From NCBI GenBank assembly GCA_902500055.1, contig GCA_902500055.1_4131.1: 64,000 nucleotides of DNA; one strand, given 5' to 3'. Each line of letters opens with the position of its first letter. Position 1 is the stretch's first letter. The notes under the pieces were generated by a model, which made no database searches, had not been told where the DNA came from, and saw only the letters and a list, made by a program, of their open reading frames with translations. This stretch comes from Escherichia coli. Lineage in GTDB: Bacteria; Pseudomonadota; Gammaproteobacteria; Enterobacterales; Enterobacteriaceae. The translations under genes and the position numbers were made by a program. Shown in pieces: positions 59,247 through 59,792 of the stretch.

Positions 59247-59792
59247 TTAAATATCATCTGGGTAATCTTTACGAATCAGTGTTTCTAGAACTTCTAGTGC
59301 TGAATCATAGTCTTTACCATTTGCTTGGCATGGAACTTTGTCATATTTTAAATTTTGACGCAGTTGTTCGTTACCATTGTCAATCATTGCAGCGAATGTA
59401 ATACACATTTCATCAGTAAATGTACCAACATGATATGAATGTACTGAAGAGTTTAGTGCTTCAATAACCTCCCATGCTTGGTCTTGGTCCATGTGGAATA
59501 CTTCACTACAAACACACTCAACATACTCTGCATGTGTGGTAGGATCATCTAACAAAATAAAGTGAAACTTAGGAACATCCAACTGATTTTTTTCAGGGTG
59601 TTCTTTTAAAAATAACTCTAGTCCAGCTTTAAGTACTTTATTATCAACTTTACTATGTTCAGATTGTAGTTTTGTTACATAAGGAGTAATATCATTACTC
59701 CCTGCTAAGTAATAAACTGAATCTTTATATGTGGCTTTCACAACGCTGAACTGTTGAAGTGAAAACACTTGTTGTTCGATAGTATGTTTCAT
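59247..59792 (-). CDS. clpS: ClpS-like protease adaptor with N-terminal extension
   Basis: [64 protein letters not shown] aligns with E. coli ClpS [27 protein letters not shown]...[24 protein letters not shown]. Confidence 0.6.

Follow-up and report, generated by a model that had tools for sequence, protein, structure and literature searches.

ClpS is the bacterial reader of N-degrons, and its hand-off of cargo depends on a disordered extension at the N-terminus, which enters the pore of ClpA and is pulled in; the proline junction also plays a role (PMC9663308). In E. coli, residues E79, E82 and K84 of ClpS make contact with ClpA (PMC12493166, citing Zeth 2002). The N-domain of UBR1 is a recogniser of type-2 N-degrons (PMC8346999; PMC12493166). 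For jumbo phages, Iyer et al. 2021 named a CBB homologue as a jumbo-phage ClpS, the accession of which corresponds to CBB_319, a member of the long-form family considered here, and both ClpS (gp708) and ClpA were reported for Atu_ph07 in the paper on that phage. In the literature that we searched, ClpS, ClpA and ClpP of jumbo phages are given as separate items, and neither the long-form architecture nor a three-gene system is described.

The stretch of DNA that was analysed (64,000 nucleotides, referred to below as the window) belongs to a jumbo coliphage, an Asteriusvirus (SP27/PBECO4/121Q), from a group of myoviruses of roughly 350 kb. Escherichia phages SP27 and IA-38 match the region at 100% identity, and PBECO4, 121Q, Sharanji and others do so at 99.1-99.9%. 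An ORF of 181 aa, from ATG to TAA, occupies exactly 59247-59792 of its minus strand, and the product is 100% identical to that of gene 48 of 121Q, which is recorded as 'protease adapter protein ClpS'. Elsewhere the same protein is called 'ATP-dependent Clp protease adaptor' (Sharanji) or 'ClpS domain-containing protein' (ph0011), the GAP32 and CBB records give PF02617 for their family members, and the RaK2 orthologue appears in UniProt as 'Adaptor protein ClpS core domain-containing protein'. The ClpS identification of this gene is already public in GenBank, UniProt and Iyer et al. 2021 and is not new. The long-form architecture and the three-gene system are incremental, computational additions to it. 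Two of the names in circulation are misleading: RefSeq and PHROG use 'ATP-dependent protease' for what is an adaptor, and the WPEC3 record misnames the gene 'DNA gyrase subunit A'.

The gene, its neighbours and the local expression signals are the following:

58630..59175, minus strand: KTSC-domain gene, 181 aa, downstream neighbour of the ClpS-like gene (Pfam KTSC, E=6e-14)
59179..59235, minus strand: terminator-like hairpin from RNA folding, with a 15-bp outer stem AAAAACUCCAAGAUU / AAUCUUGGAGUUUUU, then seven U
59247..59792, minus strand: long-form ClpS-like gene, 181 aa plus stop codon (PHROG 15940, E=2e-96)
59800..59804, minus strand: AAGGA Shine-Dalgarno sequence of the ClpS-like gene, 7 nt before its ATG, read from the sequence
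59806..60309, minus strand: IF-3 homologue, 167 aa, upstream gene of the ClpS-like unit (Pfam and PHROG 9787)
60354..60382, minus strand: sigma-70-type promoter that matches the consensus perfectly (TTGACA-17-TATAAT), with its end 45 nt before the start codon of IF3
312, 5254, 6617, 8464, 16096, 25681, 26227, 28088, 42175 and 60354, minus strand: perfect sigma-70 consensus promoters from a consensus scan of the window

The initial annotation of this locus had placed the ClpS-like gene next to an IF-3 homologue, and this was borne out. Both domains of the neighbour are matched in Pfam (IF3_N, E=6e-16; IF3_C, E=8e-14), and 13 nt separate its stop codon from the ClpS-like ATG. The homologue, with both of its domains, is conserved across the whole Rak2-like group. 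Judged by its consensus match alone, the site at 60354..60382 is likely the promoter of a transcription unit that comprises IF3 and the ClpS-like gene. It is one of ten perfect TTGACA-N16-18-TATAAT sites in the window, where shuffled sequences predict 0.23; all ten lie on the coding strand. These sites probably represent early promoters of the jumbo phage that depend on host RNA polymerase. When 248.5 kb of phage 121Q were scanned, 68 sites with at most one mismatch lay on the coding strand and 5 on the opposite one, a bias that makes chance placement unlikely. In the phage, clpA and clpP are each preceded by a one-mismatch site that has an extended -10 and stops 41 nt (clpA) or 35 nt (clpP) short of the start codon, and sigma-70-type matches are thus found 35-45 nt upstream for all three genes if the ClpS-like gene is counted via IF3. 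This pattern points to transcription of the ClpS-like gene, clpA and clpP by the host sigma-70 polymerase. The RNA-seq paper on phage PA5oct does not mention Clp genes.

The hairpin downstream begins 11 nt past the ClpS-like stop codon and has a folding energy of -22.5 kcal/mol (z = -4.28 relative to shuffles). Given this predicted fold, it would act as a terminator; a simple terminator scan, which passes over loops of more than 8 nt, left it out. Its 3' arm holds the GGAG (Shine-Dalgarno) that precedes the start of the KTSC gene. In 121Q, the GenBank name of the KTSC protein is 'DnaJ-like', and Pfam gives the KTSC domain only.

The product of 59247-59792 had been assigned to the ClpS family, with a profile search against PF02617 named as a check. 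Run with Pfam, this search did recover ClpS over residues 74-144 (E=2e-5), although the single sequence passes narrowly, with 24.7 bits against the gathering cutoff of 23. In a single-sequence search of the PDB, ClpS was matched at E=0.17 only. As this match is weak, a family profile was needed, and a profile of 15 members matched E. coli ClpS at E=4e-8, with ClpS proteins filling all of the best ten matches. Furthermore, an exhaustive profile search recovered ordinary ClpS proteins of ~100 aa over profile positions of about 65-150. The product is, by sequence homology and by its predicted ClpS fold, a divergent long-form member of the ClpS family. Among 1.84 billion proteins, no more than 19 of this long architecture, counted as representatives at 50% identity, scored E≤1e-10, and the BFVD viral structure library contains one full-length structural match to it, the RaK2 orthologue.

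The gene neighbourhood suggests a different reading, in which a translation-related protein uses the fold shared by ClpS and the bL12 C-terminal domain and acts with the IF3 and KTSC proteins. The order IF3 - ClpS-like - KTSC is strict down to 22% identity and is found in metagenomic relatives at 22-26% identity. The KTSC gene lies downstream of the ClpS-like gene in every relative examined, including Vibrio phage 2.275.O, where a short ClpS-like gene is followed by KTSC (L022:687-846) and the upstream gene encodes a homologue of ribosomal protein bS21 instead of IF3. This synteny is, however, part of a much larger conserved block, with DHFR/Dda helicase at one end and topoisomerase II at the other; phages 121Q, GAP32, RaK2 and XaC1 share the order Dda helicase ... 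IF3 - ClpS-like - KTSC - virion protein ... topoisomerase II. Sequence profiles recover ClpS only, and the protein has no Pfam match to Ribosomal_L12 (PF00542) at E up to 1. The Glu that contacts ClpA is also invariant in the family, and the gene co-occurs with a phage ClpA. We consider a translation function of this kind very improbable, and a bL12-like role, raised by the neighbouring genes, was rejected on sequence and fold scores.

Two genes for virion structural proteins (PHROGs 25121 and 18596) lie directly downstream of KTSC, at 56278-58658 on the minus strand. Their position means that early-type and structural genes are interleaved in the block. Five tRNA genes (Thr-tgt, Asn-gtt, Ser-gct, Arg-tct, Gly-tcc) are clustered at 15729-22023 of the window on the minus strand. 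On the E. coli K-12 chromosome, at 922-927 kb, clpS-clpA adjoin infA (IF-1) and aat; that this clpS-infA neighbourhood echoes the pairing of IF3 with ClpS in the phage is probably a coincidence.

The protein divides into four parts:

59601..59792, minus strand: family-specific N-terminal domain, residues 1-64, beta-beta-beta-alpha-alpha, motif YKDSxYYxxGxxDITxYV
59571..59600, minus strand: linker, residues 65-74, with P66 and P74 invariant among close relatives
59331..59570, minus strand: ClpS core domain, residues 75-154, with pocket residues D82, D83, P84, T86, A88, V91, I110, L113, N114 and L148 and ClpA-contact residues E128, I131 and F133
59250..59330, minus strand: C-terminal helix and conserved extreme tail, residues 155-181, family motif LIR[RK]D[YF]PxD[LI]

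An N-terminal extension of about 70 aa had been described from the sequence. It is real and consists of about 64 residues plus the 10-residue linker. Structure prediction gives residues 1-64 three strands and two helices with a pLDDT of 83, and the segment is thus predicted to be a folded domain in place of the disordered extension. The linker aligns with the proline junction that precedes the E. coli ClpS core. It is all that is left of a pore-entering disordered extension in this protein. At the other end, the initial annotation passed over a region of roughly 30 residues with the conserved tail.

The functional residues were compared in an alignment of E. coli ClpS and the window protein with 101 canonical ClpS proteins and 33 other members of the family. 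The roles assigned to them follow PMC8346999, PMC9663308 and PMC12493166, and positions are given in E. coli numbering:

N34, pocket, alpha-amino ligand: N in 90/101 canonical proteins; D82 in the window protein; D in 25/34 of the phage family
D35, pocket: D in 98/101 canonical; D83 in the window protein; D in 24/34 of the phage family
D36, pocket, alpha-amino ligand: D in 84/101 canonical; P84 in the window protein; P in 21/34 of the phage family
T38, pocket: T in 99/101 canonical; T86 in the window protein; T in 27/34 of the phage family
M40, gatekeeper: M in 60/101 canonical; A88 in the window protein; A in 21/34 of the phage family
H66, pocket, alpha-amino ligand: H in 86/101 canonical; N114 in the window protein; N in 23/34 of the phage family
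E79, contacts ClpA E28 and T81: E in 57 and D in 43 of 101 canonical; E128 in the window protein; E in 34/34 of the phage family
E82, salt bridge to ClpA R86: E in 61/101 canonical; I131 in the window protein; I in 15 and H in 7 of 34 of the phage family
K84, salt bridge to ClpA E23: K in 81/101 canonical; F133 in the window protein; F in 20, Y in 6 and L in 4 of 34 of the phage family

The set of residues that binds the alpha-amino group in the N-degron pocket is incomplete in the window protein, in which only D35 and T38 are kept. The lining of the specificity pocket (L32, V33, M40, V43, M62, V65 and L99 in E. coli) is hydrophobic, being made of L80, L81, V91, I110, L113 and L148, with the gatekeeper M40 replaced by Ala88. 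The absence of conserved pocket residues had been named as evidence that would speak against the adaptor assignment, and in the alignment D35, T38 and the hydrophobic character of the lining are kept, with N34D, D36P, H66N and M40A as changes. A 'VH..G' motif that had been read as part of the ClpS signature turned out to be misplaced. The equivalent of E. coli V65-H66 is L113-N114, and His118 lies four residues further on, in a loop.

The exchange of H66 alone is not disqualifying, since the equivalent residue is naturally Asp in Leptospira ClpS1 and in the N-domain of human UBR1 (PMC8346999, PMC12493166). That the pocket of the window protein binds some N-terminus is chemically plausible. In the close clade (Asteriusvirus/RaK2, >=41% identity), D82, D83, T86, A88, V91 and N114 are at least 90% conserved, and the pocket positions rank among the best conserved residues of the core. 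This conservation suggests a pocket that is working but altered. In the wider long-form family the pocket drifts, with GAP32 having N-T-A..D..K, and recognition of an N-terminus may therefore not be the function that the family has in common. Aat, the Leu/Phe-tRNA-protein transferase that makes N-degrons, is absent from the same phage group. The combination of N34D, D36P, H66N and M40A, a folded N-terminal domain and a phage group without Aat makes the label 'N-degron adaptor' uncertain for the window protein, and canonical N-degron delivery by it is doubtful.

The same phages encode the other two components of a Clp protease. According to tblastn, SP27, PBECO4, 121Q, RaK2, GAP32, CBB and others carry a ClpA that is 43% identical to E. 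coli ClpA over residues 22-732. It is complete, with 762 aa, and the alignment shows that both Walker A/B pairs are present and that the KYR and GYVG pore loops are intact; an IGM tripeptide stands where E. coli ClpA has its IGL ClpP-docking loop. The N-terminal 160 residues are strongly diverged. As the match of a single phage N-domain to E. coli ClpA was marginal (E=0.013), a seven-sequence profile was needed, and the best match of the profile from seven phages was the N-domain of E. coli ClpA (E=2e-11 over residues 17-138), with those of ClpC and Hsp104 ranking behind it. In terms of gene presence, a ClpA-type partner with an N-domain is therefore found in the same system as the ClpS-like protein, in essentially the same phage records.

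Gene 464 of 121Q encodes ClpP (PF00574, E=4e-41), and its Ser-His-Asp triad aligns. RefSeq labels the phage ClpP 'head maturation protease', which is misleading: a T4 gp21-type prohead protease is present in 121Q and adjoins the portal, scaffold and capsid genes. Since this separate protease exists, head maturation is an unlikely task for ClpP. For CBB virions, one ClpP peptide has been reported, which leaves room for a role of ClpP in virion assembly. Two further genes of phage 121Q, outside the window, are of note. The gp473 gene (L013:13417-14025) encodes a second ClpP-like protein, which scores 16.7 bits, below the Pfam cutoff, with its triad residues aligning; the phage may have a two-subunit ClpP, or gp473 may be a degenerate paralogue. 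The gp475 gene (L013:14353-14949), annotated 'ClpYQ-like', has no Pfam match.

The ClpS-like gene was found in 72 records (Escherichia 34, Klebsiella 10, Salmonella 8, Erwinia 8, Yersinia 4, others) and the ClpA N-domain in 73, which divide among the genera in nearly the same numbers; for the phage ClpP, the five largest genera have the same counts as for the ClpS-like gene. The few mismatches that were identified are partial records. This co-occurrence lies mostly inside one related clade with conserved gene content and should not be read as a large number of independent cases. The three genes lie apart: clpA is about 85 kb from the ClpS-like gene, clpP is also far, and both are outside the window. 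No second, canonical ClpS was found in the Asteriusvirus-type phage group at E up to 0.01.

A more direct comparison of the two partners was possible for seven phage ClpS/ClpA pairs. ClpA position 28 is Glu in E. coli and an invariant Asp in the seven phages, so that the equivalent of E79 and an acidic ClpA position 28 are kept on both sides. For the lost K84-E23 salt bridge, the seven pairs showed no clean pattern of compensatory change, and E82 is replaced in most of the long-form pairs. As a consequence, docking of the ClpS-like protein on the phage ClpA is inferred from one conserved contact. ClpA positions T81 and R86 were not used, as their mapping differed between the MAFFT and HMM alignments.

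The initial annotation had proposed an N-degron adaptor that redirects or blocks host ClpAP. A phage relative of ClpS with an extra N-terminal region is indeed what the locus encodes, but host ClpAP as the target does not stand as proposed, because the same phages encode their own ClpA and a ClpP with an intact triad. This makes the phage ClpAP the more likely partner. If the protein nevertheless docked on the N-domain of host ClpA, which would be compatible with its acting on the phage ClpAP too, it could protect phage proteins or switch off the degradation of host N-degron or ssrA-tag substrates. The ClpS fold and the invariant equivalent of E79, which contacts ClpA in E. coli, are consistent with such an action, as is the early-type promoter. 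Action on the host protease is also what the literature assumes (Iyer et al. 2021), and a folded N-domain in place of the pore-entering extension would suit a blocker that does not deliver. The phage, however, has its own ClpP and its own ClpA with a strongly diverged N-domain, the partners of E. coli ClpA R86 and E23 (E82 and K84) are now Ile and Phe, and the identity between the core and E. coli ClpS is low, at about 21-23%. We thus regard action on host ClpA as unlikely.

The absence of the disordered extension required for hand-off also bears on what the protein would do on the phage ClpA. It might regulate ClpA without delivering anything, for instance by occupying the N-domain and so suppressing the degradation of default substrates or ClpA autodegradation. 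The pocket would then be vestigial, and the N-terminal domain and C-tail would provide regulatory contacts. E. coli ClpS does inhibit the degradation of ssrA-tagged substrates (PMC9663308), and in the long-form family the N-domain, the C-tail and E79 stay conserved while the pocket drifts. On the other hand, the conservation of D82, D83, T86, A88, V91 and N114 within the Asteriusvirus/RaK2 clade argues for a ligand-binding role there, and a purely regulatory protein appears quite improbable to us.

The explanation that we favour, with moderate confidence and from comparisons at the sequence level, is that the long-form ClpS-like protein serves the phage-encoded ClpA-ClpP set, rather than host ClpAP. 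Early in infection, a single unit of IF3 and the ClpS-like gene would be transcribed by host RNA polymerase. The ClpS core would dock on the N-domain of the phage ClpA, with E128 (E79) and ClpA position 28 forming the contact that is conserved on both sides, and the docked protein would set which proteins the phage ClpA-ClpP degrades. The altered pocket of the close clade, with D82, D83, T86, A88, V91, N114 and its hydrophobic lining, probably still binds a free N-terminus, the specificity of which would not be for Leu/Phe/Tyr/Trp. The folded N-terminal domain and the C-terminal tail would take the place of the disordered extension that, in E. coli, ClpS threads into the pore of ClpA. As folded modules stand where the disordered extension was, either the hand-off must work in another way, or the N-terminal domain and C-tail bind cargo or a partner. 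The folded N-domain counts against this model insofar as it argues against the canonical mechanism of delivery.

A bolder version, which we put forward tentatively and do not expect to hold in full, makes the long-form ClpS the substrate selector of a self-contained, early-expressed phage ClpS-ClpA-ClpP machine. Its N-terminal domain and C-tail, rather than or besides the pocket and extension, would pick host proteins, such as defence or translation factors, for destruction at takeover. If true, this would add a new way in which adaptors deliver substrates in the Clp system. In either version, the findings suggest that Rak2-like jumbo phages bring a private system of regulated proteolysis, beside GroES-like and DnaJ-like genes, and do not just use that of the host. 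A natural ClpS that has a folded domain and changed alpha-amino ligands and gatekeeper, and that comes with a diverged ClpA and ClpP of its own, would offer a comparative system for asking how adaptor hand-off and specificity can be rebuilt.

In comparison with bacterial ClpS (E. coli ClpS/YljA, PF02617; PDB 2W9R, 3O2O, 1MBX), the L-L-D-D-x-x-T of the window protein aligns with V-N-D-D-Y-T of the E. coli protein. T38, V43, F51, G74 and L99 of E. coli ClpS are kept in the long form, E79 is invariant, and a proline is found at the pre-core junction. The long form differs in having 181 aa instead of about 106, with a folded 64-aa domain where the disordered 25-aa N-terminal extension would be and with an extra C-terminal helix followed by the conserved extreme tail, which bacterial ClpS lacks. 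It also carries N34D, D36P, M40A, H66N, E82I and K84F, and its gene is not next to clpA. In the literature that we consulted on variant N-recognins, the combination of N34D, D36P, M40A and H66N is not reported. Leptospira ClpS1 and the UBR1 N-domain resemble the long form in that the H66 equivalent is replaced, but they keep the Asn at N34, and UBR1, unlike ClpS, is part of a ubiquitin ligase and not a Clp adaptor. The short ClpS proteins of jumbo phages (the PA5oct group, Atu_ph07 gp708, Phosso and Vibrio phage 2.275.O), of about 100-118 aa, have neither the N-terminal domain nor the C-tail of the long form, and that of Vibrio phage 2.275.O keeps N34, D35, D36, T38, E82 and K84. The genomes with a short canonical-type ClpS (the PA5oct group, Phosso and Vibrio phage 2.275.O) also encode ClpA, and the long-form phage genome, as is the case for bacterial ClpS, encodes a ClpA with an N-domain.
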